From the NCBI RefSeq assembly GCF_002571385.2, contig NW_019217905.1, positions 348,049 to 412,048 on the forward strand: a stretch of DNA of 64,000 nt, read 5' to 3'. The notes below the pieces were generated by a model. It was not told the origin of the DNA, made no database searches, and saw nothing but the letters and a program-made list of their open reading frames with translations. A program made the translations under genes and the position numbers. This document shows, piece by piece, positions 8,359 to 25,609 of this stretch. The first letter of the stretch is position 1. Every line of letters begins with the position of its first letter. The stretch is from Stylophora pistillata. Lineage: Eukaryota.

Positions 8359-8567
8359 AATAGTTACCGAGAGAACATGTAACGAAAGAAAGCTCTAACG
8401 GTTTTCCGGGTCGATCTTGATTAAGACATCGAGGCCTATCAGAGAACGGCGAATTATGCGATTACTTGAGTCCGTAAATTGTGAACACTAACTTTGTCTG
8501 TATATTGTACGATTTAACGCCGCTAGTTAACGGCGTAAAATCCTACGGTAGTTACTAAAAGTTGGAA

Positions 8568-8740
8568 TCACCTGAAACCACCTGAAACCACCTGAAACCA
8601 CCTGAAACCACCTGAAACCACCTGAAACCACCTGAAACCACCTGAAACCACCTGAAACCATCTGAAACCATCTGAAACCATCTGAAACCATCTGAAACCA
8701 CCAATGAAACCACCTGAAACCATCTGAAATTACCTGAAAA
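8568..8740. repeat. 10-bp tandem repeat (CACCTGAAAC/CATCTGAAAC, about 17 units), followed by short ~7-bp accgc repeats to ~8810
   Basis: Directly visible. It explains the spurious GGFRWFQVVS ORF at 8527..8883. Confidence 0.95.
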
Positions 8741-8891
8741 TTACATGAAAGCACGCAGACATGAACGCAGACCGCAGACCGCAAACCGCACACCGCAAAC
8801 CGCACACCTCGAATACCCACGCCTCGAAAAAGATCTACACAGTGTGTAATTACCAGATTTATCTCTCTTCCCTTTGTTATCAAACGAGATC

Positions 8892-9100
8892 AGTAGTAGG
8901 CATGTTGCCGATTCTGGCACACTTTCGTTACATCAACGAGAATCTAAGTTAATTTAGTTAATTTTAGTACTTTTTCATGACCTAACTCAAGACATTCACG
9001 TCAAATTATTGTGCATATACAATAATTTGGTACTTTCCGGCGGCTCGGCCCTGCACATTCACGTCAAATCATTGTGCATATGGTATAATTTTGGCACTTT
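8892..9100 (+). repeat. Left terminal inverted repeat of the Polinton
   Basis: The first 34 bp are an exact reverse complement of the right end, then the match is imperfect. It contains two copies of cattcacgtcaaat(t/c)attgtgcatat. Confidence 0.95.
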
Positions 9101-9108
9101 TGTGTTGC

Positions 9109-11934
9109 TTAACCGGTTGTATTGTCTGCTTCTCTACAATGTCCTATTGCATACGTGTGTATTTTGTCTGGTAAAATGATTCGCTTGTCATCGTCTGCAG
9201 ATAGTGCAACCTTATTGATCTCTTCCATATACATCTCATGTTTTCGACTTCGAAGGGTGTTCATTTTTCGTAGTTGTTTTTCACCGCCAAACAAACATCT
9301 CTTGTAGTCATCAAAGCTTATCGTACGTTTTACCACCCCCTCTTTCATTCCCTTACACTTCTTCACTTCTTCTTCATCACCAAACATCTTGTAGCTGTAC
9401 AGCTTAGCCCTCAGACCAACAAACTCTTCTATCATCTTTCCACCTGCCTCGTCTTTGAACATTCCAATCACTTTCTTGTTCACACCGGTCGGTATCCCAG
9501 AAGTATGCCCCTTTAAAATGTTGCTCGTGTCAAACAAACGATCAACATCATCACTTATATCTTTGTAAAAATCTTCAGTCTGAATCTCATAACAAAGGCT
9601 ATCAGTATCGGTGAAAAGAAGCTTTGATTTACCCTCTGAGTACTTAGGTTTGATGTAGTTGTAGTGAAAGTCGTACATCAATGTCTTACTGATATCGAGG
9701 ATGCTCATCCCGAGATAGAGAGGTTTATTGAAGACAATCTGTGTCTTTCCCATATGTATTGCGCAAAGATCTTCAGAGAAGATGGTTCGGTGTTTGAAGT
9801 TGACCTTATTTGTCAACTTCTTTGCCTTTTCTTCTCTGGTAACAAGTCTCACGTCGACGCGTTTTCGAATGTTCTCCATGGTTTTGCCAAAGACAGCGTT
9901 GTTCATCAGCTTGTAGAAGTCTTTTTCAAATTCGTTTTTTGCTTTGGCTCTCAAAGATGTGTTCAAATCGATGTACTTCTTCATCCAAGGACTCTCTTTG
10001 AACCTGATGACGCGGTGAATCTTTCCGATCTCTATTCCAAGACTCATGTAATGCTTCAATGTCTCATGATGAACGATGTACTTTTTCTTTTCGTTTAACG
10101 TACAGACCAGCTTATGTACTTTACCAATCAATAGATTTTCAGGAGCGGGTGGGTAGTCGTTGAAGTGATCGTGAAGCTCTTTTTTGACACCTTTCAGGTC
10201 GACTTCGAGAATGCAAGCAAAGCTTTTCCATTTTCCAAAGTCTTTTTTGTCTACCCATTCAAAACCCCCCGTCGGCAGACTCTTACTCATCGCCCAACCG
10301 TAAAGGTTGTTTGCATCGAGATACGTGATGAACTTTGAAGGTTGGGTAGGGTCAAAGGTTTCTTCCATGTATTTGTTATTGGCTTTTGCATGTCTTGTTG
10401 AAATCATTGAAATCCCACCGCGAATACCGGCTTCAAACATGTGCAACATATTTATATCAGCCAACAACTCAAGTTCTATCTCAGTCAACTTGAGACAAGC
10501 ATCCCAAGCCAAACCCGGTGCGGTGAAGTACCAGCAAGGATCGAGATCGTAGTTCTCTTTGCAAAGTTCACGAAAGTTTTCAAACACATCGGCTAGTAAA
10601 AGAACGTCGCTTCGATTGTAGAGATTGTGGTAATCTCTGAATGTCTTACAACGAAAGACNNNNNNNNNNCATCTCCTACAGATAAACTTCTTATGCTCAT
10701 TTTTTGATAGGCTACTCGATACGAGCCGACTCAAATTCTTGATGAGACAGTAATGCTTTTTGTCACCTTCACTAATAAGTAGAAGATCAACTACATTTAC
10801 AGCATGAGTCATGCTGCTCACTCTCAAGGGATTGAGTCCATTTTCATACATGTAAACGTTGACTCCTATCTCCGGATTCAACTTTTCAAAGCGACTAATG
10901 CTCTTCACCTCCATTGGAAACTCGATGCCATCCCACACGAGTTTTTCTGCCTGTTTTCTCAAAATCTTTGTGATACGCTCAGGATTACTTTGAACAGGGT
11001 GCAAAGCTCTCGTGACACACCATTTGAAGCACTCTTCATCCTTGTTTTTCATATTTATGATAGTCTTCTTACTCTCGAGATGTTTTGGTAGCTTAATGTA
11101 CGAAGAGCCTTTCAAAGGAGTGTACTTAACAGTATGTAAATCTAAACCCTCAACACGATTAAAAACCCACCCGCTCTTATTTCGTAAAAACGTAGCCAAA
11201 CTCTCCATCATTTTTTCTACAGATTCTTCATAAAGTTCTTCTCCATCAGTCTCTCGAAAGATAATCTTTTGATGAGATGAGAAATATGCAATCATCGTCT
11301 CAACCTCACCCGTAATAATATCTTTCTTTATCATCTCACACCTAAAAATGAACTCTATCTTGATATTTTTTTGTGTATTCAAAAAGTTAATAACGGTCCG
11401 TTTTACAGTCATAAGAAAACCCTTCGGTCCATAACCCTCTACCCCATCAATAGTGTACGTCTTTGTAAACCGTTTCAATGAAGACACTTTCTCAACAAGT
11501 TTGAAGCGGTGATCGTCTTTTTTGTAGAGTTGATTGATATATTGTTTGAAATCTTTCAACTTGTCATCGACTGCTGCTCGCGGTGTGTTTGACACATCTT
11601 TCAACCACTGACCCCAATCTTCAACCATTTTCTTCCCCCAATCAACAGCCTTCTCGATTTTTTTTATCAGTGGTGCTGGTGTCGGTTTCAATATATCTCC
11701 TTTAGGTATTTCATGCGTGGGTATCGGCGCGTCTAGTAGAGAGCCACCTGAGTGATTCCAGACGAACTCGATTTTTCGATATTGCTTCTGCGGCTTGGAA
11801 ACCGCAGCACTGCTTGCAGCTGCACTGCTTGACTGAATGAATCTGATAAGCTCAGCTTTTCGAAGCCTTGAATAGCCATGAAGACCATTCTTCTTTGCTA
11901 ATTTGCGGAGTTGCTCAACAGTGTGTCTCTCCAT
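9109..11934 (-). CDS. polB: Protein-primed family B DNA polymerase with an N-terminal Rho-N/HeH-like motif; the middle is lost in an N gap
   Basis: Motifs YLDANNLYGWAM, KLMNNAVFGKT, FTDTDS, GLRAKLY, KCKG and DVLLLADVFENFR are present. The 11-N gap at 10660-10670 lies where most of the exonuclease region is expected. Confidence 0.95.
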   Translation of the reverse strand: MERHTVEQLRKLAKKNGLHGYSRLRKAELIRFIQSSSAAASSAAVSKPQKQYRKIEFVWNHSGGSLLDAPIPTHEIPKGDILKPTPAPLIKKIEKAVDWGKKMVEDWGQWLKDVSNTPRAAVDDKLKDFKQYINQLYKKDDHRFKLVEKVSSLKRFTKTYTIDGVEGYGPKGFLMTVKRTVINFLNTQKNIKIEFIFRCEMIKKDIITGEVETMIAYFSSHQKIIFRETDGEELYEESVEKMMESLATFLRNKSGWVFNRVEGLDLHTVKYTPLKGSSYIKLPKHLESKKTIINMKNKDEECFKWCVTRALHPVQSNPERITKILRKQAEKLVWDGIEFPMEVKSISRFEKLNPEIGVNVYMYENGLNPLRVSSMTHAVNVVDLLLISEGDKKHYCLIKNLSRLVSSSLSKNEHKKFICRRXXXXVFRCKTFRDYHNLYNRSDVLLLADVFENFRELCKENYDLDPCWYFTAPGLAWDACLKLTEIELELLADINMLHMFEAGIRGGISMISTRHAKANNKYMEETFDPTQPSKFITYLDANNLYGWAMSKSLPTGGFEWVDKKDFGKWKSFACILEVDLKGVKKELHDHFNDYPPAPENLLIGKVHKLVCTLNEKKKYIVHHETLKHYMSLGIEIGKIHRVIRFKESPWMKKYIDLNTSLRAKAKNEFEKDFYKLMNNAVFGKTMENIRKRVDVRLVTREEKAKKLTNKVNFKHRTIFSEDLCAIHMGKTQIVFNKPLYLGMSILDISKTLMYDFHYNYIKPKYSEGKSKLLFTDTDSLCYEIQTEDFYKDISDDVDRLFDTSNILKGHTSGIPTGVNKKVIGMFKDEAGGKMIEEFVGLRAKLYSYKMFGDEEEVKKCKGMKEGVVKRTISFDDYKRCLFGGEKQLRKMNTLRSRKHEMYMEEINKVALSADDDKRIILPDKIHTYAIGHCREADNTTG

Positions 11935-12017
11935 TATGCAAATATGTATTTTGTAAAGATAGTTTTGGTCTCAAAAAAACTCTTTCTATTTTTTTTCTTC
12001 AATATTTATTTAAGATG

Positions 12018-12046
12018 TTTTCCTCACTCGATTTAAGTGAGGAAAA
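12018..12046. promoter_or_regulatory. Conserved intergenic dyad/hairpin, copy 1 (11-bp arms, 7-nt spacer)
   Basis: TTTTCCTCACT-cgattta-AGTGAGGAAAA. Confidence 0.75.
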
Positions 12047-12078
12047 ACCCACAACTTTACGTTGTTTACATCACTCTT

Positions 12079-12318
12079 TTACATCACGCCTGCCGCCATG
12101 TACCACGTACCAAATATTTCTTCTCCTCCTTCACCCTCCTGTGACCATACCATGTTATATGCCCGTTCTACCAAATGTCTATCTTTTTTAATGAGATTGA
12201 TAAGCTCATCTTTTTGAAGGTTAGAATAGCCACGAAGACCACCCACCCTTGCGATTTGGCGGAGTTGTTCGACAGTGAGTTTGTTCAACAGAGGTATGTC
12301 AACAAAGTGTGCTTCCAT
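12079..12318 (-). CDS. Small Rho-N/HeH-like domain protein (79 aa)
   Basis: LNKLTVEQLRQIARVGGLRGYSNLQKDELINLIK, paralogous to the pPolB N-terminus. Confidence 0.8.
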   Translation of the reverse strand: MEAHFVDIPLLNKLTVEQLRQIARVGGLRGYSNLQKDELINLIKKDRHLVERAYNMVWSQEGEGGEEIFGTWYMAAGVM

Positions 12319-12390
12319 TTGTTATTGTGATTGTCTTTGTAAAGTTTTCTATTTTTTATTTTCCAATTTTTTCCAATTTTTTAAGATGTT

Positions 12391-12425
12391 TTTTTTTCAT
12401 CACTCGATTCAAGTGAGGAAAAAAA
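12391..12425. promoter_or_regulatory. Conserved intergenic dyad/hairpin, copy 2
   Basis: TTTTTTTCaTCACT-cgattca-AGTGAgGAAAAAAA (one mismatch). Confidence 0.7.
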
Positions 12426-12448
12426 CCCACGACTTTACGTCGTTCACA

Positions 12449-12882
12449 TCACTCTTCATCATCTTCACTCTTTTGTACCACATATATATGCCTTGAATAT
12501 CTTGAAGCCTCTTCCCACCTCCGCCGCCTATCTGCTATCAAAAATTGATACCCCTCATTTACCAAAGCTTGCTTTTCAGGCATTCTTTTTATCTCTTCTT
12601 CCCACTCCTCATCTGTTGTTATTCCCCTATCTTCTTTAATGAGCTCGATAAGCTCACCTTTTCGAAGTTTTTTATAACCATGAAGGGGGAGATATTTTGC
12701 ATATTGGCAAAGTCTGTAAAAAGAGATTTTTTTTTATACCCTGCCTCTTTTAGACACTCCTCATCTGTTATCTCTGTATCTTTAATGAGCTCGATAAGCT
12801 CACCTTTTCGAAGGTCAGAATAGCCACGAAGACCTCTCTTCTTTGCGATTTGACGAAGTTGTACAACAGTGAGTTTTTCCAT
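12449..12882 (-). CDS. Two-repeat Rho-N/HeH-like protein (~144 aa) interrupted by a -1 frameshift in an A9 run
   Basis: Starts MEKLTVVQLRQIAKKRGLRGYSDLRKGELIELIK. After a -1 shift at 12727-12735 it reads KISFYRLCQYAKYLPLHGYKKLRKGELIELIKEDRG...SEDDEE* (stop 12449-12451). Confidence 0.75.
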
Positions 12883-12937
12883 ATCTTATTATAAATAAAG
12901 TTTTCTATTTTTATTTTTCAATATTTCTTTAAGATGT

Positions 12938-12966
12938 TTTTCTTCACTCGATTCAAGTGAAGAAAA
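12938..12966. promoter_or_regulatory. Conserved intergenic dyad/hairpin, copy 3
   Basis: TTTTCTTCACT-cgattca-AGTGAAGAAAA, with a compensatory T-A pair where copy 1 has C-G. Confidence 0.75.
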
Positions 12967-12982
12967 CTCGTCATCCGTCAGG

Positions 12983-13549
12983 TCAATCCTTTGACGGGGT
13001 GGTAGCCTTTTGATGGGGTGGTGGTATTTTAACGCTTATGGTGGGTTCTTTTTTCAACGTATAACTCTCAAATCTCAGATTGTATCGTATTCCATCGATA
13101 ACTATTGTGCTTTTTGTCTCTTCGTTAACTGAGGCAACCTTCGAACCAAACCTTCCAGGATTTATGTTGAAGTGTTGTGAAGCTTTATTTATCGAAGGGA
13201 AAACAAGCTCTTCTGACGAGTCTACAGGTGTTAATATCACCTTTTTTCTCACACCACAATGCCTTGCACAAGGAGGTGGAGGGTTTTTGATAACTTCAAT
13301 CAAGTCTTTTTTCTTGAGTTTATAAAGACCTTGCAAGCCCATCTCTTTTGCTTTCATCAAAAGTTCAGCCTTTGATTCTTTTTTTATACCTGCAATGTGC
13401 TGTGTTGGATTTTTGATAGCTTCCATCAGGTCTTTTTTATTCAGTTCGATAAGACCTTTCAGACCCATCTGTTTTCCTTTTGTCAAGAGTGCAGCTTTTG
13501 TATATATTTCAAGTTCATCTATCTTATACACCCATCGAGGTTTATCCAT
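12983..13549 (-). CDS. Protein with two HeH-like repeats and a C-terminal NUMOD1/IENR1-like HTH
   Basis: TKAALLTKGKQMGLKGLIELNKKDLMEAIKNP and SKAELLMKAKEMGLQGLYKLKKKDLIEVIKNP, then ELVFPSINKASQHFNIN. Confidence 0.75.
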   Translation of the reverse strand: MDKPRWVYKIDELEIYTKAALLTKGKQMGLKGLIELNKKDLMEAIKNPTQHIAGIKKESKAELLMKAKEMGLQGLYKLKKKDLIEVIKNPPPPCARHCGVRKKVILTPVDSSEELVFPSINKASQHFNINPGRFGSKVASVNEETKSTIVIDGIRYNLRFESYTLKKEPTISVKIPPPHQKATTPSKD

Positions 13550-13606
13550 GATGCAATCTTTTGTTTATATCTAACATTTTTTTAAGACATTTTTTTTCAT
13601 TTTTTT

Positions 13607-14358
13607 TCATAACTTCTGAAGTTCGCTCACATTAACCCACGAATTAAATTTCTCTGGATAACCGCTCCACTTCACGAGAGCTTGTTTGCCCTTCTTTCGT
13701 ATAACCTTCTCAATGCGGAAGAAACCCGAAGGGTTTGAAAGGCTCTGCTTCGCCTTCAACATCTCTTGTTCGTAGAAAGTGCCTTTAATCTCTTCCCCAA
13801 GCAGATCTTTCAACTTGTAAGTGATGGGCTGTGTGTATTGCACCTCATCAACAACAAAGATCTCTTCAGACCAATTTGGGGTGTAGCCCTTGTCGAAAAG
13901 CTGCCGCTTGAATTTGGAGATTCGAACGTGATCGCCGACCGCAAACTTTGGTGGGTAGGTATCCAGACCAGAGGTCTTCAGACCTTTTAGGTCTTCACCG
14001 TATAATTTCAAATAGACGGCACTCTCATTCTTTTTCTTGGAGGCCTCTACAGGTGTCATACCGATCGATCTATGTTTTGTGTTGTTGTACTTTTCGAGAA
14101 TCTTCGGCAAAATGTCGAGATACACCGTGTTGTTTTGAATGGTGAACTGCTTCCACATTTTTGTCTTTATCGTACGGTTCCATCTCTCACACACAGACGA
14201 TTTCTCCTCATTCTCTGTCGAGTACAGCTCTACGCCTTCCGCTTTCAGCAGGTCTTTGACGTGACTGTTGTAGTACTCCTTACCTTTATCGGTCCACATC
14301 TTCTTAGGCTTTCTCCCTTCGGAGAATATCTCTTTGAACCCCTCAGCCACACCCTCAC
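13607..14358 (-). CDS. int: Polinton retroviral-like integrase with a C-terminal chromodomain (5' part in gap; extreme N-terminus at ~14717-14760)
   Basis: Motifs MWTDKGKEY, KSSVCERWNRTIK, YNNTKHRSIGMTP and KGYTPNWSEEIF; chromodomain FRIEKVIRKKGKQALVKWSGYPEKFNSWV. Confidence 0.95.
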
Positions 14359-14726
14359 NNNNNNNNNNNNNNNNNNNNNNNNNNNNNNNNNNNNNNNNNN
14401 NNNNNNNNNNNNNNNNNNNNNNNNNNNNNNNNNNNNNNNNNNNNNNNNNNNNNNNNNNNNNNNNNNNNNNNNNNNNNNNNNNNNNNNNNNNNNNNNNNNN
14501 NNNNNNNNNNNNNNNNNNNNNNNNNNNNNNNNNNNNNNNNNNNNNNNNNNNNNNNNNNNNNNNNNNNNNNNNNNNNNNNNNNNNNNNNNNNNNNNNNNNN
14601 NNNNNNNNNNNNNNNNNNNNNNNNNNNNNNNNNNNNNNNNNNNNNNNNNNNNNNNNNNNNNNNNNNNNNNNNNNNNNNNNNNNNNNNNNNNNNNNNNNNN
14701 NNNNNNNNNNNNNNNNAGCTCATCTG

Positions 14727-15597
14727 CTAGGCTCGCTTCCCACCCTTGCGTGTCAACTTTTTTTTTTCACCCACACCCATACCTAGTTTCTGTTTGGTGT
14801 TGATTACGTTTCTCGCAAGCCAATGACCCCACTGCCTCTGATCGTACGGTATCGCATCGAGCGCTTTCACCATCTTGCGATCAGCCTCATTTTTACACTT
14901 CTTTGGGTTTGCCTTGTTTGCACAGACGCTGTAATCAACGTCATGCTGCATTGCGACTGCGTCACTCGGGCCCGCTGGTGGGTCATAGATTTCAAGAATC
15001 TGACCAGTCTTTGGGTCAAAGCGCAGTTGACTATCAAGGTCGTTGTAGGGGCCGGTATATTTGTGACCTGGCAGCGTCCAGCCGCTTTTCGGCTTCGGTA
15101 GTTTACCGATCGCTTTGTGAATATCGAAGGCTCCACCTTCGTAAAGCGGGTGAGTTGGATCATTCACCCCACCGGGTGCATACATCGACATCGACAAAAT
15201 CTGATTTACATCGTATGCATTATAATCACCACCTCCTCTTATCTTTTTGCTCATATCATTGACAAACGCATCGAGAGCCTGATCGACATACTTGCTCGCC
15301 GTCTTTTTGAACTTGCTCTTCGCATAGTCGGATTTGACAGCGTTTGCAAGCCCCAGCTGAGCCATGTTCGCCAACCCCTTCACAACCATCTCACCCAACG
15401 AGGTACTGGTTCGCCCTACATCTTCAAAGAGCGTCCCGCCTTTTTTTTTCCCCACCTCCTGTAAAAGAAACTTTGGTAATGCCACACTCGGCACACTTCG
15501 ATTTGATCATCGGTCGACCATTTTTCGCAACCTCATGCCGCTCACTCCCCGGCACGCTATCAGTCTTCTTCTTTTGCTTTACGCAGTAAGTTTTCAT
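14727..15597 (-). CDS. Parvovirus VP1u-like phospholipase A2 protein (PLA2X-type) with a DUF5679-like N-terminus; 1-bp frameshift in an A9 run
   Basis: Ca-loop TLPGHKYTGPYNDL and catalytic DAVAMQHDVDY. The upstream ATG at 15597 gives MKTYCVKQKKKT...KNGRPMIKSKCAECGITK, which joins the main frame if one A of 15441-15449 is removed. Confidence 0.85.
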
Positions 15598-15625
15598 TTT
15601 CGAGTTGTGTCCTTAGTACTATGTT

Positions 15626-16272
15626 TTATATTTTTTCGTCAAAATTTCGTGCACAGGTGCCCTTTATCTTATCGCAAAACAAGAAATCATAGGGTTCCAA
15701 CGCTGAAAAAGCGCTGACATCGAAGCAGTTTTCGTCAGCGATCAGTTTTCGATGACGCTGTGTCGGTGGTAAATATATGATCATGTGAGAGCAATTAAGC
15801 CTGATATCCATAGGTGTCTTGTGATACGACTGGGAGAGGTACACCGGCGAGATTTTATGGTGTCGTCCATCTATAAAGTGCTTGAGGATCTTGCTTTGGG
15901 TCTCTTTTGGTGCTGTGATCAAGTCATCAAAGATAACAACCTTTCGCCCCTCGGCGGGGTATTCGGTTGTGTCGGGGATCTGAGCCGGGTCCATCAGATG
16001 TAAAATCTGATACCCAGTCTTTGCGAATGCTTATGCATGACCTTAGCAAGGTCTTGTATCAACTCTTGGTGGAAGTTGGGGCTATAGATATATATATCGT
16101 CATATGGCACAAGCGGTGCCCTCAACATATAAGACAGCAGATTGGTCTTTCCGCTACCTGAGGGGCCAGCTATCAACATTCTATAGTCTTCGTCGAGATA
16201 GTCAACGCCTGGAACCCTTCTTTTTCGAGTACCTCCACCACGAGTGGTAGTCATTTTTGGTATGTTAACCAT
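15626..16272 (-). pseudogene. A32/FtsK-like genome packaging ATPase, split by a 1-bp frameshift near 16000-16020
   Basis: Walker A LIAGPSGSGKTN is in 15994..16272. Walker B VVIFDDL and GRHHKISPVYLSQ are in 15626..15994. The -1 frame bridges them as GYQILHLMDP. Confidence 0.9.
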
Positions 16273-16447
16273 TTCAGCTTTCAGCTTTCAACCTTTACAA
16301 GTATAAATGAAAATGTGTGTTGATTTTTTTCCACCACAAAGCGAACTGTCAACTATGCAAATAAGCGAATAGCTTCACTTATTTGGAAAAGAATGAAAAT
16401 GGTATAAAGAGTCTATCACAGTAAATTACATTACAAGTGAACAAAAC

Positions 16448-17212
16448 ATGATACTCACAAGTTGCAAAAAGCTTACCAAGGATAATGTTTATTTCGAAGA
16501 TGCAGAAGAAAACCAATATGGTCACCAGCGAATCAAGATCCTAGGGATAGACGGTGATAACAAGCTGGGGCCGTTGGCGGTGGCAACACCTTTTGGATTC
16601 TCGTTTGGAGTACAAGCGACCTACACAAAAGATGCCGACAAACTCACACTCACAGGGTACAGAGTCCCCATGCCTCTATGGAACCCCGAGAACGGTGGAC
16701 CAACACAAAAACAGCTTGATTTCTATACCGGTCTTAAGGAGTTGAAACATCTCTGCTATGAACATCTCAATGAGGTCTATGGCATAGATGTTGCAGAGAG
16801 CATGAGGTTCCCGTTGCTTGAGATAGAGGGAAAAGCACCTGTGCTGCACTCAAAGCTTTTGTACAGTGAAAGGTACAAGAAGATACGTACTCTCTTCCAC
16901 ACTCGAGAGAAAGCAAAAGTAAAACCACTCGATTACCTAGATCAGTACTGTCAAGTAAAGATGGTAATCATCATCGACAGCATCTATCTAGGAGATGAGT
17001 ATGCATCGGTACAGCTTAAAATAAATGATGTTTATGTCAAACCATTACCGCAAAATCAGGTGCTGCCATTGGCTATCCTTTCTGATGATGAAGAAGAGGA
17101 TGAAGAATGGAATAAATTATATACAGTAGAGAAGCTTGCAAGCATCGACCCGGAAAATGTTGCCTGGCTCTCTTCACCAGAGCTCATTGCTGAATTGGAA
17201 CGTGAAGATTGA
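16448..17212 (+). CDS. NCLDV-type (DUF2738 / T7 gp2.5-like) putative single-stranded DNA-binding protein
   Basis: Pattern RIKI..GPL..TP..FSFGV..GY.VPMPLW..PVLHSKL..IDSIYLG..SVQLK plus an acidic C-terminus (SDDEEEDEE), as recalled for iridovirus/NCLDV SSB homologues. Confidence 0.65.
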   Translation: MILTSCKKLTKDNVYFEDAEENQYGHQRIKILGIDGDNKLGPLAVATPFGFSFGVQATYTKDADKLTLTGYRVPMPLWNPENGGPTQKQLDFYTGLKELKHLCYEHLNEVYGIDVAESMRFPLLEIEGKAPVLHSKLLYSERYKKIRTLFHTREKAKVKPLDYLDQYCQVKMVIIIDSIYLGDEYASVQLKINDVYVKPLPQNQVLPLAILSDDEEEDEEWNKLYTVEKLASIDPENVAWLSSPELIAELERED

Positions 17213-17228
17213 GGTTTTTAGGACTTTT

Positions 17229-17255
17229 TTTCCTTTTTCGTTTCGAAAAAGGAAA
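17229..17255 (+). terminator. Hairpin 17 nt after the SSB stop codon
   Basis: TTTCCTTTTTCG-ttt-CGAAAAAGGAAA, repeated at 17761-17785. Confidence 0.5.
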
Positions 17256-17440
17256 GCTAGCGAGGGTAACACTTATCTCAAAAGTTAAGTGCTTACTATC
17301 TAAGAAAGCAGGTGTTGCACTTATTTGGAAAGATAAGTGTTACCCTTGTTTTTACTTTTTTAGATAAGTAATTGCAAAAAAAAAGTGTTATTTTTTTTTA
17401 GAGTTTTTTTAGAGTGCACAGAATTACAAATACAACAAGC

Positions 17441-17743
17441 ATGGAATCAATCAGCGAAAAGTCTGCAGCTGCCAAGAAGCGAGCTAGTCTCTTGGCTAAA
17501 AGACGAGCTCGTAGAGAAGCCAAGAAAATAGATGATGAAGTTCTAGAAAAGGTAGCTTCTTCCTTGCCAATCAGCGAGTCTGCAGTTGCCTTGGTTGAAA
17601 GACGTCTCAAATCTCTGAAAGAGACACCAGTCTTGGTGAAAGATGCGTTGGCGGAAAAGCCAGTCAATATGAGGCGACTGAAGCGGGCTAAAATCGCAGC
17701 TGTAGGGTCGAGGCTATTAGACCTAAGAGTTTGCGGAAGATAA
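17441..17743 (+). CDS. Small basic hypothetical protein (~100 aa)
   Basis: ATG at 17441 in an A-rich context; K/R-rich helical sequence; followed by the same hairpin as the SSB gene. Confidence 0.65.
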   Translation: MESISEKSAAAKKRASLLAKRRARREAKKIDDEVLEKVASSLPISESAVALVERRLKSLKETPVLVKDALAEKPVNMRRLKRAKIAAVGSRLLDLRVCGR

Positions 17744-17760
17744 CGAGAAACGCTTGAGTC

Positions 17761-17785
17761 TTCCTTTTTCATTTCGAAAAAGGAA
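17761..17785 (+). terminator. Second copy of the post-stop hairpin
   Basis: TTCCTTTTTC-atttc-GAAAAAGGAA, 18 nt after the stop at 17743 and between convergent genes. Confidence 0.5.
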
Positions 17786-17823
17786 AAATAGCGAAATCCA
17801 AGAATCACCCAAAGCGTTGTGAT

Positions 17824-18312
17824 TCAACCAAAACGTTTATGATACTGCTTGAGCATCTTATTTGTCTGAAATATTGGGCATAGATCTGTGATGGTGTCTT
17901 CGATGAGGATCACCTCTTCAATAAATGATGCACTGTTAAAGGGTCTTCCTCTCAGATAGCTTCTCAGCTCGGTTAAGATCTTTTCATAGGTGGTGAAAGC
18001 GAATTTGGTCATATCAATCTTTCGGTCAAACTTTTTTACATCTGTAAAAGTCTTGAGAAGGAGACCGGTACCTGATATTGTGGCAAGCGGGATTGGATTC
18101 ATGGTTACTCCACTAGCCACCCCACCGATAACGATGAGCATGGTGCTACCCATGTTGCAGAGCAGACTCTTTCGTTTGAAGCTCTTAAAAGTCTTCCGCG
18201 AGCACCACCACTTATTGTGATAGTATTTGTAAAGAGCTTTGAGTTCATCGATCTTCTCTTCACCGATAGAGTAGTCGATGTGATTAAAGTTGAAGATGGC
18301 AGCGTCAGACAT
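17824..18312 (-). CDS. Small membrane protein with a central hydrophobic hairpin (Polinton accessory; SLATT/'gasderminX'-like architecture)
   Basis: A basic helix, then LLCNMGSTMLIVIGGVASGVTMNPIPLATISGTGLLL, then a helical C-terminus. Confidence 0.65.
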   Translation of the reverse strand: MSDAAIFNFNHIDYSIGEEKIDELKALYKYYHNKWWCSRKTFKSFKRKSLLCNMGSTMLIVIGGVASGVTMNPIPLATISGTGLLLKTFTDVKKFDRKIDMTKFAFTTYEKILTELRSYLRGRPFNSASFIEEVILIEDTITDLCPIFQTNKMLKQYHKRFG

Positions 18313-18364
18313 TTTATTATGAGCGACTCATAATAAAATTAGCTTTTTTTCACAAGGCATTGGC

Positions 18365-21337
18365 CTAATCTTGCTTCACGATCAACAGATGACTCCAAGT
18401 CAGTCCATCAAGTAGAGTATTGCCGTTATCTGTCTCTATGCTCAGCGATGTGTTTGCTTGGAAATACAACAAAACGGAATGAGTCGTATTTACCCAACTA
18501 TTTCGTGTGTTGGGCAGCGGCATCAATATACCGCTCGCCGTTCTCACAAACGAATTGCTCAAGGTGAATTTGAGATTTGTCAGATGTTTAGACTTTACAC
18601 CATCGATGTATGTGACCAGATACATACCGGCGTTGTTGATTATGATTTTTGTATCGTCTGAACTGTTCACTGTGAAATCAGCGTTATCACTCTGTGAAAC
18701 GTTTGTGGAATGATCTGATGTTCCATTTACGTAAAATGTTACCTGTGTCACATTGTTATGAGCGCAGTTCCCTCGATACCAGATCTTCTTTGTTGCGTTT
18801 GTCAGCGCCGTCTTTGTCGCTTTTGTATCGATATTTGTCTGTAAAGTTGTTTGCATATCATCGACGTACTTTTTCGTCACAGCGGAAGAGGCTACGGTCG
18901 GCTCAAATTCGAGAGTGAGTTTAGAATTTATGTGCGTTCCTCCGCTCGCGAAGCTATACCAACTCGTCCACACATCTTTTGGCAAGCTGTTGTGATAGCC
19001 CTTTGATCCATAGACTATCACATAGATGGGAAGTTTCTGATCGTATGACTGGCCAGCTTTGTTTTTAATCACAACGTCAAACATCAAATAGTTTGGCGTC
19101 GCATTTGACCACTTAGTCATGTGAAGGAGGATGATGAGGTGATTTTCAAATCGGTTGCTACGCTGAGTAGAAATCGTTTCAACACTGCTGGTCGCCGTTA
19201 GAGTCACACTGTTCGGATCGACTTTACTCGATAGCCAACACACCTCACAGACGACCGTATATGCAGATCTGTCCGCTTGATACATGTTCACGCCAAAACG
19301 AGAAGAATAATAACCCTTGGCGGTGTCCAGGCTTAAATCAAACGGTTTGGTTCGAGGGTTGGTGGGGTAGAGAACAACCTGGTCTGTGATATTTTTGCCG
19401 GTGATGTCGTCCTCGTCAGAGAACTGACTGTTGCTGCTCATGATGTATGAGAGGTCGTTACTCAGCTGGGGTCCCGCTATGCTATCCGCGAATCTGTCCT
19501 CGACAAACTTTTTGTTGACCAGCTCGTCATCGGCTGAAGGCGTATGAGAAGAAGTCACTCTGTTAGGGCCCATTACAAGATCACCTGTCATCGTATCACC
19601 CGATTTGCTGACCTTGGTGTTCGCTAGATTCGTAGCAGTTGTTGTGCATTGGTCTACATATTTTTTGCTTACAGCTTCATCGTTATCTGAGAAGGTATCC
19701 GGGAGGTTTACGATTTTACGTTTACGCGCGTCTAAAGTTTGCTTGTCGTTAAGGGTGCGAAAGCTTGGTATGGTCTTCTTTGTATTGTCAACGTAGACTT
19801 GAGTAACATTGCTGAGAGTTGTCATATCGAGATATGCCTGCAGATGTCTCTTGATCGAACCAGCCTCGTATCTACTGACGAGTGTGTTTGAATTTTCGTA
19901 TGTAGACTGCTGCGCAGTCGTCATGCCTAGATAATTTTCGCGTTTGGTGTTGATTACATCTTTACCATTCATATCGAGGCTGGCCGTCATCTTCTGTGTA
20001 CCATCCAAGAGCAACACAGCTGATGTATCCGCTTTGCCGCTCAAGCCGTTCAAAACAGTCGATGAATCAGCCTTTTTAGCCAATTCGGTGTTGAGTTTGT
20101 TTAGATTTACAGCAGCTGTACCGCTGAGCGGTTGATCGCTTAGACCGGTAACCTGTCGGTCTGCCCCATGTGTGCTTGTGAAAGTTATTTTCTTCTTCAA
20201 ATCTGAGAGATCGATGTTACTGCCCGACCCTGAACCAGCAGGGCCAGTAGGTCCTTTAGGCCCTTGAGGGCCTCTGTCACCTTTGTCGCCTTTGTCGCCT
20301 TTCACTCCTTGTAAACCTCTTGGTCCTGTAGGTCCTCTCGCCCCAGCAGGTCCTTGAGGCCCTTGTGCTCCCTTGTTGAAAAGAAGGGGATTCTGCTCCT
20401 GGGATGAAAGCTTGTTTGCGTTGAGAATCCACACAAACACGTGTCTTGGTTGTTTCACAGCGTTTGTTATTCTGAATGTACCGTTAACCTGTTGAAGCGG
20501 GCTAGATACAATGATCTCCTCACGCAAGTAGCTCCATGTGTGGGGTTTGAGATACTCGTCCATGTACTTCTTTTGACCTTGAGCGTTGAATTTGATGATA
20601 GGCACCCATAATTTGAACTTAGTTATGATGTAACGCCCTTCAGCCGCCGCGTTGGATCGCAAAAAGACGTTATCATCGTCTTCAAGCCTAACTTGGATAG
20701 TAACCCTTCCATTGGGTGCTAATTGTTCCTCCATCGAGTCAAAAAAACCAAAACGGTTGAGCGGTAGGTGGATATTATTCTCTGCCGGATCACCTGTGGC
20801 GAGAAGAATTTGTCGTTTGGCAAAACCTTCGTTATAATACGCATTGTCAGTTGGTTCAATGTTTTGAGCGTTTCCATCAAGATCTAGTGTTGCATACTTA
20901 TGGCTCACTGCACCGGTGGCGGTATCCTTGTAAAAAAACTGTCGAGGCCCTACCTTCTTCGCATGCTCATCAGTCATCTCTGTGAGATTCTTTACATTTA
21001 CCACGTGGTTGGCTGCGGGGAGACCGAGGACCCGAGTGCCATCAAAAGAGATTTTGATATCTTCGATTAGACTAAAACCTCCGTTGATGATAGCTACAGC
21101 ATCTGTATCAGCGTAGTTTAAACCGTTTGCTTTTTTGTTGATCTTGAAATCTATTTCGAAGTAAGCGTTATACCAGTCGGGGACAGATTCAGAAGCTGTA
21201 GTAGTGTCTACGGTAAATTTATAAGCATCTTTCTGCTGATAGGCCCCGTTAGCAGGTGCTGCTTGCAGTGGTGTGTCGAGTTCGTATGAGTAATATTCAT
21301 ACGCCTTGGCGTATTTTGAGGTTCTCATCTGAGACAT
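18365..21337 (-). CDS. Chimeric ORF: N-terminal ~321 aa of the double jelly-roll major capsid protein fused to a collagen-repeat fibre-like protein
   Basis: MCP-type motifs [36 protein letters not shown] and [13 protein letters not shown] are followed by ~15 Gly-X-Y triplets. These are followed by repeated (A/L)V(N/S/T)KK(Y/F)V(D/E) and MTGDL motifs and a beta-rich C-terminus (NAGMYLVTY). Confidence 0.85.
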
Positions 21338-21387
21338 GTTACTTGTTGTTTGTTGAGGTTTTGATCTTGATGAGAGTCAAGACTTTT

Positions 21388-21924
21388 TTATTGCAAAAAA
21401 AGTTTATCAAAGAGACTAGACACTTCTGAGGGTTCTTTTTTAGTTTTAGGCTTAGCACCTTTAGCACCATTGGTAGCAGTAGTACCTTGAGTACTAGGTG
21501 TAGTACTAGACGTACTTGCTGGTGCTTGAGTTCTCCACGATTTATCTTGTTGTAGCAGCTTTACAAGCTTATCTCCTTTGTTTTTCTCTGTCGCATCAGT
21601 CGTGACTGGTGTCACTTGTGGTGTGACTTGTGGTGGTTGACTAGCATCACCTTGCGACCGTTTTGAAAATTTATCATAGACCGTTTCACCGACTAATTGC
21701 CCCATCTTATCACCGATTTGCTCAGCACCCTTCTCAATCGCTTTAGTCCCCGCTTTTGTTGCAAGCTCTTTCGCAGCTTTACCCGTAACCTTGGCAGCTA
21801 CTTTTGAGGCTACATTTTTGACAACGTCAAAAATTCCTTCACCTTCTTGCGCTTGGTAAGTGTCGTCAATATTTTGTAATATGGGTTTGCCATCAACACC
21901 CAGTTTTATATGTTTTCGACCCAT
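21388..21924 (-). CDS. Putative virion core/membrane-active precursor protein
   Basis: GEG|IFD motif followed by the amphipathic helix IFDVVKNVASKVAAKV; located between penton and MCP. Confidence 0.65.
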   Translation of the reverse strand: MGRKHIKLGVDGKPILQNIDDTYQAQEGEGIFDVVKNVASKVAAKVTGKAAKELATKAGTKAIEKGAEQIGDKMGQLVGETVYDKFSKRSQGDASQPPQVTPQVTPVTTDATEKNKGDKLVKLLQQDKSWRTQAPASTSSTTPSTQGTTATNGAKGAKPKTKKEPSEVSSLFDKLFLQ

Positions 21925-21986
21925 GACAAAGTCTTGTTTTTATTTATATCAGGGTAAGATATAAATAATTATGTTTTTGAAAACGT

Positions 21987-22775
21987 TTACTTTAGCAAAA
22001 GTGTTAGTGAGACGGCTGTGCCGTTGAGGTCTAATGGCCTCCCAAGGGAATCGGTTATGTATATCCGCAAGTCTCTGATAGTGCTCGTGTTTATTTTGTT
22101 ATATTTCTTTTCCATCGGTTCGAGATGCAAGGGGAAACTGAGGGGTAAATTATCAACCGAAAATCGAAAGAGAACGTCCGATCCTTTCCCACCAAAAACC
22201 GAATCGGAGATAATATTTGTACGGATATAAATATCATCCACCGAGCGAGTGATATCTGGCAGCTTGTCACCATAACTGGTCGCTGTCACGATTTTCTTTG
22301 TAAAACCGATAAGATCTCCAAAGTCACCTGTTCGCAGGTCGACTTGATAACCATCATCGAGACCGATCAGACATTTGAAAAGGGCCGGTACAAATTTGAG
22401 CTCGATGCCGGTTTTAGAATGCTTCGAAGATTCAAGCTCTCGCTTAATATAAGCGTTTAGTTCTGAATAAGAGAAATTCCCATCAGGGAATTCGATTTCA
22501 TGCCACGTGTTCCCAGAATCGTGACTATATTTGAGTTTGTTGTTGTTGTAGGTGTTGCTAACGTTGTACCACGCGTACGACATCGCCAATTCGTCAAGAG
22601 CAACATAGTATTTTGTGTTTGGGTCTAACTTCATCACAGGGTTGAAGGTAGTAGTAAAATTGTGGCTCACACCTCTCGAACAACTCAGAGAGCTAATACC
22701 GATAGGAGTTGGAGGTTTATGATTTGAGGCAATTTCCATGTTGACTGCAATTATTTGGTCAAGCTTAGATTCCAT
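21987..22775 (-). CDS. Minor capsid protein (penton, single jelly roll)
   Basis: Motifs NFTTTFNP..YYVAL, PDGNFSYSELN, DIYIRTNII and IYITDSLGRPLDLNG..VSLTL, typical of Polinton pentons. Confidence 0.85.
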   Translation of the reverse strand: MESKLDQIIAVNMEIASNHKPPTPIGISSLSCSRGVSHNFTTTFNPVMKLDPNTKYYVALDELAMSYAWYNVSNTYNNNKLKYSHDSGNTWHEIEFPDGNFSYSELNAYIKRELESSKHSKTGIELKFVPALFKCLIGLDDGYQVDLRTGDFGDLIGFTKKIVTATSYGDKLPDITRSVDDIYIRTNIISDSVFGGKGSDVLFRFSVDNLPLSFPLHLEPMEKKYNKINTSTIRDLRIYITDSLGRPLDLNGTAVSLTLLLK

Positions 22776-23920
22776 TAGCTCAGATATTTTTGTATGTATG
22801 CATCATATTGTTTTTTCGAAATTTGGTTTTTCTTCCGGAGGTAATCGATAATCTCGATTATTGCGTTACGAAGGTCAATAGATGTGTTACCCGCTTCTCT
22901 AGAGGCTGTCAACATCTTTAATTTTTCTATGACTTCTTTGATATCGGTAAATATGAGTCCTCCAGCCATTTTCGCTTTGCCAGAAGACTTGTGTAAGGGA
23001 AGGCCGGCGAGTTTTGAGAGATGTTTGAACATTTCGATTGATTTTTGTGAATAATTTGTTTTGGGGTTGTGTCTCTTTGTTAAGAGATTAATGAGAGATT
23101 TGTCACCTTGTTTTTCATAAACCGGTTGACCGGTTGAAAGATCACTCGCTTCAACCACCATTTCGTTAAATAGGCGAGGAATGTTAATGAGGAGGCCACC
23201 AAATTGTCCGTACCCATTAACTTTGTAGGCATTTCGTTTTGGTTGTGTATATTTACGCTTTTTGCGACCCTTGAGACCTTGACCTTGCGTGACAAGTATT
23301 TCATCACCATCCATGAATAAAGTAAGACGATCTCTATATTTTTTCAGCGTCTTGACTTGTCTCTCGAGTTTTTTGATTTCGTCTTTATTTACCTCTTTAG
23401 CATTCGACATACCGGCCTTGACTTTGTTCGCGTGGGTGATTCTATCATGCAAATCAAACATGTGTCCATCGTAATCGAATTGCTCCTCAAGTATCTGTTT
23501 GAATGCGGTTTTAGGTGTTTCATAACCGAATTTTTTAATAAGTTCAAGTTCGCCGAGTTCGTCTTGGGTGAAATCTTTGTCTGGGTCTGGGACTTTCATT
23601 TTCGGTTTAGGTGGTGGTTCAAGAGCTGTTGGGCTTTGTGGTGGGCTTTCGAATGTGTCTAGCTCTTTGAGAAACGAAAGATCTTGAGTAAGAGCCTGTT
23701 GATTCTCATCTAATTTTGCAATGAGCTGGTTTTGTTTGTCGTCTATTGTTTGTTTGACCTTGGACAATTCCTGTGTGATCGGTTTGAATTCCTTCTCGCG
23801 TTGGATAGCGAAACTTTGCTGTACATCTTTGTAGTCTTGTACAGTCTGATAGATTTTTCTTCGCGTGCGATCGTTTTCGAGTTTGAGAGCCATATCTTTC
23901 GAAAAGTTGGCAATATCCAT
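22775..23920 (-). CDS. Polinton PZ-like protein (likely start MDIANF at 23920)
   Basis: N-terminal FKPIT coiled coil and C-terminal LKMLTASREAGNTS..NAIIEIIDYL signature; its stop overlaps the penton ATG. Confidence 0.75.
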   Translation of the reverse strand: MDIANFSKDMALKLENDRTRRKIYQTVQDYKDVQQSFAIQREKEFKPITQELSKVKQTIDDKQNQLIAKLDENQQALTQDLSFLKELDTFESPPQSPTALEPPPKPKMKVPDPDKDFTQDELGELELIKKFGYETPKTAFKQILEEQFDYDGHMFDLHDRITHANKVKAGMSNAKEVNKDEIKKLERQVKTLKKYRDRLTLFMDGDEILVTQGQGLKGRKKRKYTQPKRNAYKVNGYGQFGGLLINIPRLFNEMVVEASDLSTGQPVYEKQGDKSLINLLTKRHNPKTNYSQKSIEMFKHLSKLAGLPLHKSSGKAKMAGGLIFTDIKEVIEKLKMLTASREAGNTSIDLRNAIIEIIDYLRKKNQISKKQYDAYIQKYLS

Positions 23921-24078
23921 GTTTTTGTTAGTGGTCAAGATAATTTTTTTAATGAGAAAACACGAAGTGTTCACATGTTTTGCATGCGTGAAGGTCATCT
24001 GTTTGCGTTTCACATGATTTCAAGTGAATCACATGGTCAACACCTCGTGATTCATTTGTATGCAGAGCACGTTTCATG

Positions 24079-24602
24079 TGGGAATAGTTTCTCCTGCTGG
24101 AGAGGGGGGTTTAGAAATATTATGGGAATAGTTTCTCCTGCTGGAGAGGGAGATTTAGAAATATTATGGGAATAGTTTCTCCTGCTGGAGAGGGGGATTT
24201 AGAAATATTATGGGAATAGTTTCTCCTGCTGGAGAGGGGGATTTAGAAATATTATGGGAATAGTTTCTCCTGCTGGAGAGGGGGATTTAGAAATATTATG
24301 GGAATAGTTTCTCCTGCTGGAGAGGGGGATTTAGAAATATTATGGGAATAGTTTCTCCTGCTGGAGAGGGGGATTTAGAAATATTATGGGAATAGTTTCT
24401 CCTGCTGGAGAGGGGGATTTAGAAATATTATGGGAATAGTTTCTCCTGCTGGAGAGGGGGATTTAGAAATATTATGGGAATAGTTTCTCCTGCTGGAGAG
24501 GGGGATTTAGAAATATTATGGGAATAGTTTCTCCTGCTGGAGAGGGGGATTTAGAAATATTATGGGAATAGTTTCTCCTGCTGGAGAGGGGGATTTAGAA
24601 AT
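24079..24602. repeat. 44-bp minisatellite, 12 near-identical units, inside the Polinton
   Basis: Unit TGGGAATAGTTTCTCCTGCTGGAGAGGGGGATTTAGAAATATTA starting at 24079, 24123, ... 24563. Confidence 0.97.
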
Positions 24603-24647
24603 TTGCATAAAACCTAGACACCACAAAAAGCCGTCACACAACACGCC

Positions 24648-24814
24648 GTCAAAATTATACCATATGCACAATAATTTGACGTGAATGCGTTGGACCGAGC
24701 CGCCAAAAAGTGTCAAATTAATGAAAAATGGGGGAGAAAAGTGCAAATTAATGTATAATCACGATAATATGACGTGAATCATGAAACTGTCCTCGAACCG
24801 GCACTTATCCTACT
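24648..24814 (+). repeat. Degenerate internal copy of the right TIR
   Basis: 24648-24720 closely matches 25336-25408. It ends gaaccggcacttatcctact, versus the true end gaatcggcaacatgcctactact. Confidence 0.8.
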
Positions 24815-24819
24815 TATTT

Positions 24820-25272
24820 TTACTTATTTAAAATAAATAAATGATCTTTGGCAGATTCAACATCCCAACCACGCTTTTTTAGCAAATCATATAAATCTTT
24901 CTTTGTCATCTTATACAATCCAACAATCGGTGGGTTATTATAACTCATTGCAATTGACATGAGTTGATCCTTTGTAAGTATACAATCTTCAATGCTGTAT
25001 TTGTATAACATTGTTGGTGAAGCCATTGGTTCATCTTCAACAAGACCTCGCTTTCTGAGATCGTTGTAGAGTTCCTCTTTTAGTTTTTTGACTGATATTT
25101 TATTATCTTTTGCAATCACTTTTAGCTCATATATTGTGTAACTTTTAATATCTCCTCTGACAAGGTTTTTCTCTCGCATCTTTTTAAACAGGTCATTCTT
25201 GTTCAATTCATATATGCTCTTCATATTTGCGTCTTGCGCAAGCTTTCGCAGTTGAGCAATTGTATAATACAT
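24820..25272 (-). CDS. Three-repeat Rho-N/HeH-like protein (150 aa)
   Basis: YTIAQLRKLAQDANMKSIYELNKNDL; YTIYELKVIAKDNKIS..KLKEEL; LTKDQLMSIAMS..GLYKMTKKDLYDLL. Confidence 0.8.
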   Translation of the reverse strand: MYYTIAQLRKLAQDANMKSIYELNKNDLFKKMREKNLVRGDIKSYTIYELKVIAKDNKISVKKLKEELYNDLRKRGLVEDEPMASPTMLYKYSIEDCILTKDQLMSIAMSYNNPPIVGLYKMTKKDLYDLLKKRGWDVESAKDHLFILNK

Positions 25273-25330
25273 ATCGGTTTTGGTTTTATAAAGTTGCTAA
25301 AGTGTTTAAATAAAGTATGACTTTTTTCCC

Positions 25331-25539
25331 AAAGTGTCAAAATTATACTATATGCACAATAATTTGACGTGAATGCGTTGGGCCGAGCCGCCGGAAAGTA
25401 CCAAATTATTGTATATGCACAATAATTTGACGTGAATGTCGTTGAGTTAGGCCTTGAAAAGTACTAAAAATAACTAATTTAACTTAGATTCTCGTTAATG
25501 TGACAAAAGTGTGCCAGAATCGGCAACATGCCTACTACT
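25331..25539 (-). repeat. Right terminal inverted repeat of the Polinton
   Basis: Reverse complement of 8892-9100. Confidence 0.95.
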
Positions 25540-25609
25540 GAGATCACGGAATGCGTAAGCGAAACTGCTATGTAAACATTGGAGTTGAATTCTTATTGAA
25601 GATATCGCA

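Follow-up and report, generated by a model that had tools for sequence, protein, structure and literature searches.

What is a short inverted repeat doing between the small genes of a coral Polinton? We analyzed a window of 64,000 nucleotides from Stylophora pistillata (contig NW_019217905.1, positions 348,049 to 412,048 of the forward strand; "the window" denotes this whole stretch). In it, a Polinton/Maverick copy carries, between its integrase and its family B DNA polymerase of the protein-primed kind (pPolB), a set of minus-strand genes with a helix-extension-helix (HeH) module, and copies of a dyad with 11-bp arms around a 7-nt core recur in the spacers. The original prediction, made from the letters of the window, described this arrangement as a gene accordion and offered three roles for the dyad: (a) an RNA 3'-end hairpin, (b) an operator for the HeH/NUMOD1 proteins, or (c) a recombinase site. 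We found that gene-end hairpins of 24-31 nt fall into about seven classes, of which the dyad is one, and that it is not special to the accordion. It is moderately probable, in our judgment, that these hairpins fold in RNA and mark transcript ends, following the hairpin rule of giant viruses, and that the HeH block is an accordion working by unequal crossover.

Gene ends were scanned in 24 copies of the element (23 copies extended with neighboring stretches and the window copy), counting hairpins that scored at least 10 and lay within 90 nt after a stop codon. Such hairpins followed 120 of 282 gene ends, compared with 3 of 282 controls within coding sequence (CDS) and 0.8 expected from dinucleotide shuffles, in counts that include broken open reading frames (ORFs), use a heuristic integrase/PLA2 split and come from copies that share ancestry within one genome and are thus not independent. 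Hairpin density was 1.96/kb between genes, 0.064/kb in CDS and 0.114/kb in host flanks, and 124 of the 130 intergenic hairpins were 24-31 nt long. Stop and hairpin were 8-54 nt apart; the exceptions are pPolB, at 18-58 nt, and two hairpins behind ATPase/PLA2, at 0 and 4 nt. This is the palindrome enrichment just after stops by which the giant-virus hairpin rule is recognized. Gene by gene, hairpins followed penton (8/14), MCP (14/21), protease-like (14/18), fibre (17/21), g162 (15/21), DUF2738 (26/32), g188 (14/21), HeH cargo (6/12) and pPolB (4/20) genes, where the labels penton, PZ, protease and fibre are our unconfirmed assignments, made in part from position and a collagen match, and DUF2738 is presumably SSB-like. 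They were scarce or missing after g407 (0/10), g178 (0/21), PZ (2/19), ATPase (0/20), PLA2 (0/17) and integrase (0/15). Each of these six genes precedes a co-oriented gene, which fits shared 3' ends.

The dyad of the HeH region belongs to a class with the core T-G-A-N-N-C-G. Hairpins of this class are also found after DUF2738 genes and at the convergent g162/DUF2738 junction, and in a distant copy (L129) a dyad of the same type follows the penton gene. Considering that a convergent junction needs no promoter, same-core hairpins at that position favor a 3'-end role. With similar hairpins after stops throughout the element, convergent ends included, option (a) is the best supported of the three roles. 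In an inversion, two hairpins are carried intact and the fibre and DUF2738 genes are again followed by hairpins, with the classes swapped. Gene blocks were inverted or moved with intact hairpins in C290, C470, C211 and C296 (L054, L055, L064 and L110). Hairpins of the window copy outside the HeH region are as follows.

9002..9029, minus strand: hairpin within the terminal repeat, some 80 nt past the pPolB stop codon, with a mirror copy at 25402-25429
17229..17255, plus strand: same-core hairpin, 16 nt after a DUF2738 stop
17761..17785, no strand: same-core hairpin between the convergent stops 17743 (+) and 17824 (-)
18311..18339, minus strand: AT-rich hairpin that follows the collagen-fibre ORF and touches the next ATG; its 3' arm contains AATAAA
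21940..21968, minus strand: AT-rich hairpin of 11-7-11 form; the putative penton gene ends 18 nt before it

The dyads themselves were largely as described. They do lie inside a Polinton, whose termini and genes are present at 8892-25539. Perfect 11-7-11 dyads occupy 12018-12046 and 12938-12966, and the third, at 12394-12422, has one mismatched pair; a fuzzy search of the 64-kb window with at most 7 mismatches returned no copy beyond these three. The first and third copies differ by the C-G/T-A double change that had been claimed, and each of the three is followed by CATCTTAAA and then by a AAAATAGAAA tract. Other statements held in part. While all four ORFs match Pfam Rho_N above the cut-off, the ORF at 12983-13549 (g188) does not start with the module said to begin each of them; two more diverged HeH units are located near residues 16 and 58, together with a weak NUMOD1 match (E 0.09). 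The spacer reported to recur contains the dyad in three cases, but that upstream of 12983-13549 has TCTTAAA and no dyad. The distance of 17-33 nt past the upstream stop describes the outer dyads reasonably, whereas 196 nt separate the middle dyad from the 12619-12882 stop, and its short distance is valid solely for the out-of-frame tail of this frameshifted 87-aa gene. Decay accounts in part for the "unrelated C-termini" of the two small genes: both window versions are frameshifted or shortened compared with their sisters, which are longer and consist of HeH and an acidic tail. In cargo B of the window, a second HeH unit (about 12635-12735) is out of frame, and sisters hold 2-3 HeH units in one ORF. 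The region is laid out as follows.

8892..25539, no strand: Polinton/Maverick copy (termini, terminal repeats, target duplication)
9109..11934, minus strand: pPolB, whose N terminus carries the Rho_N/HeH module; an assembly gap removes about 1 kb (PF03175; RNA joint with 1082 letters between)
11935..12017, minus strand: spacer with CATCTTAAA, AAATATTG (candidate early promoter) and AAAATAGAAA, then the pPolB ATG (motif search)
12018..12046, minus strand: gene-end hairpin, perfect 11-7-11, 32 nt after the cargo A stop (fold, pattern search)
12079..12318, minus strand: cargo type A, a small gene with Rho_N; in most sisters it is longer and has an acidic tail (Pfam, sisters)
12394..12422, minus strand: gene-end hairpin with one mismatched pair; 12391-12425 with T/A tails (fold, pattern search)
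12619..12882, minus strand: cargo type B, Rho_N gene, frameshifted in the window (Pfam, sisters)
12883..12937, minus strand: spacer with CATCTTAAAGAAATATTG and AAAATAGAAA (candidate early promoter; motif search)
12938..12966, minus strand: perfect 11-7-11 gene-end hairpin, extending to 13-3-13 when T.G is counted; the stop of g188 lies 16 nt before it (fold)
12983..13549, minus strand: g188 (188 aa), carrying two HeH units and a region weakly like NUMOD1; in most sister copies (Pfam, sisters)
13607..14299, minus strand: RVE integrase, C-terminal part with chromodomain, not followed by a hairpin (Pfam; sister L034)

To compare the arms, we aligned 29 distinct dyad rows (alignment A2), comprising the 3 from the window and 26 of 29 variants. 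In this alignment 94.4% of the cells were paired and three pairs showed double changes, in comparison to 45-57% pairing in slid controls, and the covariation score was reached by none of 500 shuffles in a test that ignores relatedness. Structure is kept while sequence changes, as in the giant-virus hairpin rule, with one class keeping its core. Judging from this pattern, selection on dyad pairing is likely. The hairpins are also polar. Read on the sense strand of the upstream gene, pair 12 was T.G versus C.A at 18:3 after g188, 7:2 after cargo genes and 5:2 between DUF2738 genes. With the T.G pair included, the stem on the coding strand grows to 13 bp around a 3-nt loop, which applies to two of the three window dyads; the fold of the coding strand is the more stable one in all three, by 1.6-3.2 kcal/mol relative to the opposite strand.

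Signals around the hairpins differ between gene groups. AATAAA or ATTAAA was found near 13 of 52 dyads, fewer than the 33.9 expected from mononucleotide shuffles, and was rare after g162 (0/21), DUF2738 (1/32) and the putative protease (1/18). Upstream of genes, the motif AAAT(A/G)TT was present at 22 of 38 pPolB/HeH starts (4.5 expected), 17 of 30 g188 starts (3.1) and 9 of 28 DUF2738 starts (3.0), and absent before g178 (0/17), MCP (0/16), PZ (0/10) and g162 (0/18); fibre (4/23) and penton (3/14) depart weakly from this split. In the replication region, TCTTAAAGAAAT(A/G)TT is a likely early promoter.

We compared 40 copies of the element, namely the window and 39 sister loci, all from one genome (G000) and found with the integrase-pPolB interval of the window. 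This interval contained one dyad in 27 copies (including the incomplete L047), two in 7 and three in 4; one copy has lost the interval and one was not resolved. In copies with three dyads, the cargo order was B-A in the window and L031 and A-B in L039 and L046. The predicted gene accordion is therefore borne out, as dyad number and cargo order differ among sisters. The predicted "variable cargo" does vary in number and order, but the term was overstated, as the cargo is of two related HeH types only, A and B. The trees were built from short fragments, so only starred nodes were used, and the mis-cut pPolB rows L032, L050 and L058 were ignored. In the pPolB tree, L038 with two dyads and L042 with one are zero-length sisters (support 100/99), and the window, L031 and L046 cluster (100/97) though their cargo order differs. 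A purely old, static tandem duplication is ruled out by such differences in number and order among near-identical copies. The junction that distinguishes L038 from L042 is about 14 nt upstream of the dyad, and L062 carries a 762-bp duplication that is joined at the HeH start and borders an assembly gap. Pooled pairwise dN/dS values, from mosaic sequences, were 1.30 in 7 copies of cargo A, 0.50 in 6 of cargo B and 0.38 in 15 of g188. At 1.30, cargo A shows no sign of purifying selection, which either drift or diversifying selection may explain. The accordion is genuine and probably ordinary in mechanism; its simplest and likely explanation is unequal homologous crossover within the spacer and HeH start that the units share. 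Poxvirus gene accordions likewise gain and lose a small gene in tandem by recombination in a double-stranded DNA (dsDNA) virus; unlike these, the coral unit carries its own terminator-like and promoter-like block. The DUF2738 genes form a second accordion, with 1-3 paralogues between g162 and the ATPase (L031-L046), and most of these paralogues are followed by a same-core hairpin.

A coherent scheme can be proposed from these observations. By analogy with the hairpin rule of giant viruses, the hairpins would fold in RNA and mark transcript 3' ends. A likely early promoter and then an HeH-coding start come after each hairpin of the replication region. pPolB and the two small HeH genes have this block of hairpin, promoter and HeH start in common, so that unequal homologous crossover within it could add, drop and reorder small genes without a dedicated recombinase. 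The machinery reading the hairpins is not encoded by the element and would be supplied by a co-infecting giant virus or by host factors; we favor the giant virus, at about even odds with host factors.

Several observations weigh against this scheme. Besides the non-independence of the gene-end counts and the relatedness that the covariation test ignores, palindromes may covary through template switching alone, and loop flips are present. A minority of copies have C.A on the sense strand. The 7-nt core is conserved, unlike mimivirus hairpins, whose sequence is reported not to be conserved (PMC4402537). AATAAA is in the 3' arm after penton (13/14), MCP (17/21) and fibre (15/21), and the hairpins after these genes abut the next ATG; as such, they could be host poly(A) signals or promoters. 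One AT-rich hairpin stays with the start of its downstream gene in inverted copies. For RNA, we compared two contig sets and two raw-read runs with positions 9000-18500. None of the four runs had a pile of ends; raw-read depth was below 2 over the cassette, and the raw reads came almost solely from a diverged pPolB copy, whose reads are abundant at window 9143-10215 and mostly antisense in run X17. Scans of viral contigs and metagenome contigs gave neither a helper virus nor relatives outside the genome.

The reading that differs least from the scheme shares its 3'-end function and departs from it just in the reader, taking the host nuclear machinery alone, with Pol II and CPSF acting at AATAAA hairpins and a host stem-loop pathway elsewhere, with no helper. 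Polintons are usually regarded as nuclear, which agrees with this, as do the AATAAA-bearing arms after penton, MCP and fibre. A search of G000 for capsids of nucleocytoplasmic large DNA viruses (NCLDV) likewise gave no match, but its control also had none and the result is uninformative. Host reading alone is nevertheless doubtful, since AATAAA is lost in some copies (C63 and C470) with pairing kept, is absent or depleted at four other hairpin classes, and the element is nearly silent in ordinary coral RNA, a silence that host silencing would also predict. If the hairpins were instead dsDNA dyads bound by a dimeric protein (HeH, NUMOD1-like or a late transcription factor), they would serve as operators or promoter elements of the next gene. 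This would suit the position of most hairpins 0-90 nt before an ATG, the conserved core and T/A tracts, the several HeH proteins encoded by the element and the AT-rich hairpin that moves with its downstream gene in inversions. We consider it unlikely: the same core class is located at convergent gene ends, the arms change in complementary pairs and differ widely around one core, and the spacer before g188 has a promoter-like motif without any dyad. Option (b) of the original prediction is weakened accordingly.

A role in DNA, in which the hairpins fold in the strand displaced during protein-primed replication or extrude as cruciforms, act as pause or recombination points for module shuffling and owe their symmetry to template switching without any RNA role, would explain loop inversions between otherwise identical hairpins, an inverted block that ends at a hairpin foot and some dyads whose left and right arms are of different types. 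These few dyads with unlike arms could also be loop crossovers or intermediates of compensatory change, and the DNA-level reading leaves the stop distance of 8-54 nt, the absence after six particular genes and the coding-strand T.G polarity unexplained; we rate it improbable. We give hardly any credence to the last option, (c), according to which a tyrosine recombinase acting in trans uses the dyad as its site and moves the small genes like integron cassettes, and regard it as largely refuted already. The 11-7-11 geometry with an asymmetric core, the variation in cassette number and order, and 94 tyrosine-recombinase domain matches elsewhere in the assembly speak for it. A Pfam domain scan confirmed, however, that the element encodes no recombinase, and the arms covary rather than being conserved binding arms with a linked enzyme. 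The core is kept within the class, flips between copies and varies among sister sites. All of the junctions examined fell outside the dyad (L038/L042, L062 beside its assembly gap, and the inverted blocks, which keep hairpins intact), so that strand exchange within the core was not seen at the best-resolved breakpoints. There were no solo sites: all 61 strand-matches of the dyad pattern in G000 are in the Polinton integrase-pPolB spacers already examined. An independent mobile palindrome is ruled out by the same absence of matches outside Polinton spacers. A bacterial-type intrinsic terminator is ruled out as well, as the stem is followed by an A-tract rather than a U-tract. Rfam gave no match over the whole element.

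In sequence anatomy, the coral Polinton looks like a hairpin-rule virus. A viral RNase III reportedly cleaves mimivirus mRNAs within palindromes, where they are also polyadenylated (PMC4402537), and in Sputnik the hairpin signal is described at 16 genes (PMC6723459). The coral element resembles these Mimiviridae and Sputnik systems in having palindromes just after stops and, like Sputnik, would be a small integrating dsDNA virus that could borrow the signal without transcription or 3'-end enzymes of its own. It differs in its animal host and its pPolB and RVE integrase; the coral hairpins are also short and uniform, one class having the fixed T-G-A-N-N-C-G core. Marseilleviridae are described with an enrichment of intergenic palindromes tied to upstream stops (PMC5413956) and an AT-rich AAATATTT motif before genes that is not linked to expression class (PMC8208085). 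Intergenic gene-end palindromes with an AT-rich AAATATT motif before genes are shared with the coral element, in contrast with which marseilleviruses are amoebal giant viruses with their own RNase III; the coral motif is largely confined to replication genes, and for so short a motif the likeness may be chance. In the animal-infecting IIV-6, transcripts are reported to lack poly(A), and hairpins of 22-56 nt with a TAATG/CATTA motif have been proposed to end them (PMC5923455). Two coral classes similarly have TTAT..ATAA arms, and the fibre-gene hairpin TTATG/CATAA is one letter from the IIV-6 motif; the dyad of the HeH region, on the other hand, has no such motif, and no sequence link to an iridovirus was found. 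Medusavirus is reported to package four Rho_N proteins in its virion (PMC6450098), which parallels the several Rho_N paralogues here at domain level, although the coral proteins are small and fast-evolving and one is fused to pPolB.

The termini, target duplication and core genes are those of the Group 1 Maverick/Polinton (adintovirus) elements of stony corals (PMC11131425, PMC8502044, PMC8097293). The main texts of PMC11131425 and PMC8502044 do not mention hairpin, promoter or Rho, those of 10.1101/2023.10.16.562556, 10.64898/2026.06.19.733378 and 10.1101/2023.08.22.554363 describe no gene-end hairpins, that of PMC11161782 has no Rho or HeH domain, and the palindromes in that of 10.64898/2026.07.28.741278 are terminal only. 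Literature searches of openly available main texts likewise gave no description of such gene-end or upstream signals for animal Polintons.

By its tested features, the coral element is a Polinton. It spans 16.6 kb (8892-25539) with terminal inverted repeats and AGTAGT ends, of the AG...CT type, between 6-bp target duplications (GAGATC, 8886-8891 and 25540-25545). The polymerase matches PF03175 (E 2e-14) and the packaging ATPase matches Pox_A32 in Pfam, as expected of an A32-like ATPase. The integrase of the window copy is interrupted by an N gap, and a sister, L034, has an rve match (E 2e-7; 31.5 bits, cut-off 32.6) and a chromodomain. For the capsid ORF of a sister, modeled at low confidence (pLDDT 49), double-jelly-roll capsids made up all 20 of the PDB matches shown and most of the named BFVD matches. 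A candidate maturation-protease ORF of the sisters is absent from the window copy and gave no Pfam match; it is called a protease from a motif, and the label is unconfirmed. The ORF at 18365-21337 fuses the first approximately 320 capsid residues to the collagen fibre, and sisters have capsid, PZ-like, protease-like and fibre as separate genes with two further hairpins, so the window copy has an internal deletion. The packaging ATPase is in two ORFs at 15626-16272 in the window and mostly in one ORF of 213-215 aa in sisters.

Searches with g188 returned 37 protein matches in ENA/Logan assemblies, and those with cargo B returned 49 unnamed Rho_N/SAP proteins. The HeH module gave weak Rho and Tho1 matches in the PDB (E 0.2-0.6), no match among phages and, in the Atlas, leads scoring below 0.9. 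At the element end, a fifth Rho_N gene (24820-25272) is flanked on both sides by copies of the inner terminal-repeat segment (24648-25474) and adjoins a 44-nt tandem array (23947-24690), which makes a second HeH cassette. Outside the left end, host DNA at 8563-8735 has a 10-nt tandem repeat and a short repeat family, and a 74-nt stretch akin to this left-flank repeat is found at 25938-26011. The genome also holds a second, more distant pPolB family (L125, L127, L130 and L138) with longer AT-rich palindromes at some gene junctions, which also precede its pPolB gene.

Animal Mavericks have been hypothesized to need a giant virus, possibly an iridovirus, an argument made from host range with no cis-signals cited in the passages on it and with Maverick virions not observed (PMC8097293). 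As a tentative extension, we suggest that the coral family might be an animal provirophage, with hairpins and early promoters tuned to the enzymes by which an undiscovered iridovirus- or marseillevirus-like coral giant virus transcribes its genes and forms mRNA 3' ends, and with the HeH accordion as an arms-race array of small nucleic-acid-binding proteins acting on that helper. The larger result, beyond the accordion, is the element-wide punctuation by hairpins, and the same gene-end scan can be applied to Polintons of any animal genome. Together with the class-specific upstream motif, the hairpins make the helper hypothesis directly testable through RNA ends and coral giant-virus genomes. 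If the proposed 3'-end role is true, gene-end hairpins would be sequence-level support for the published hypothesis of a giant-virus dependence of animal Polintons.

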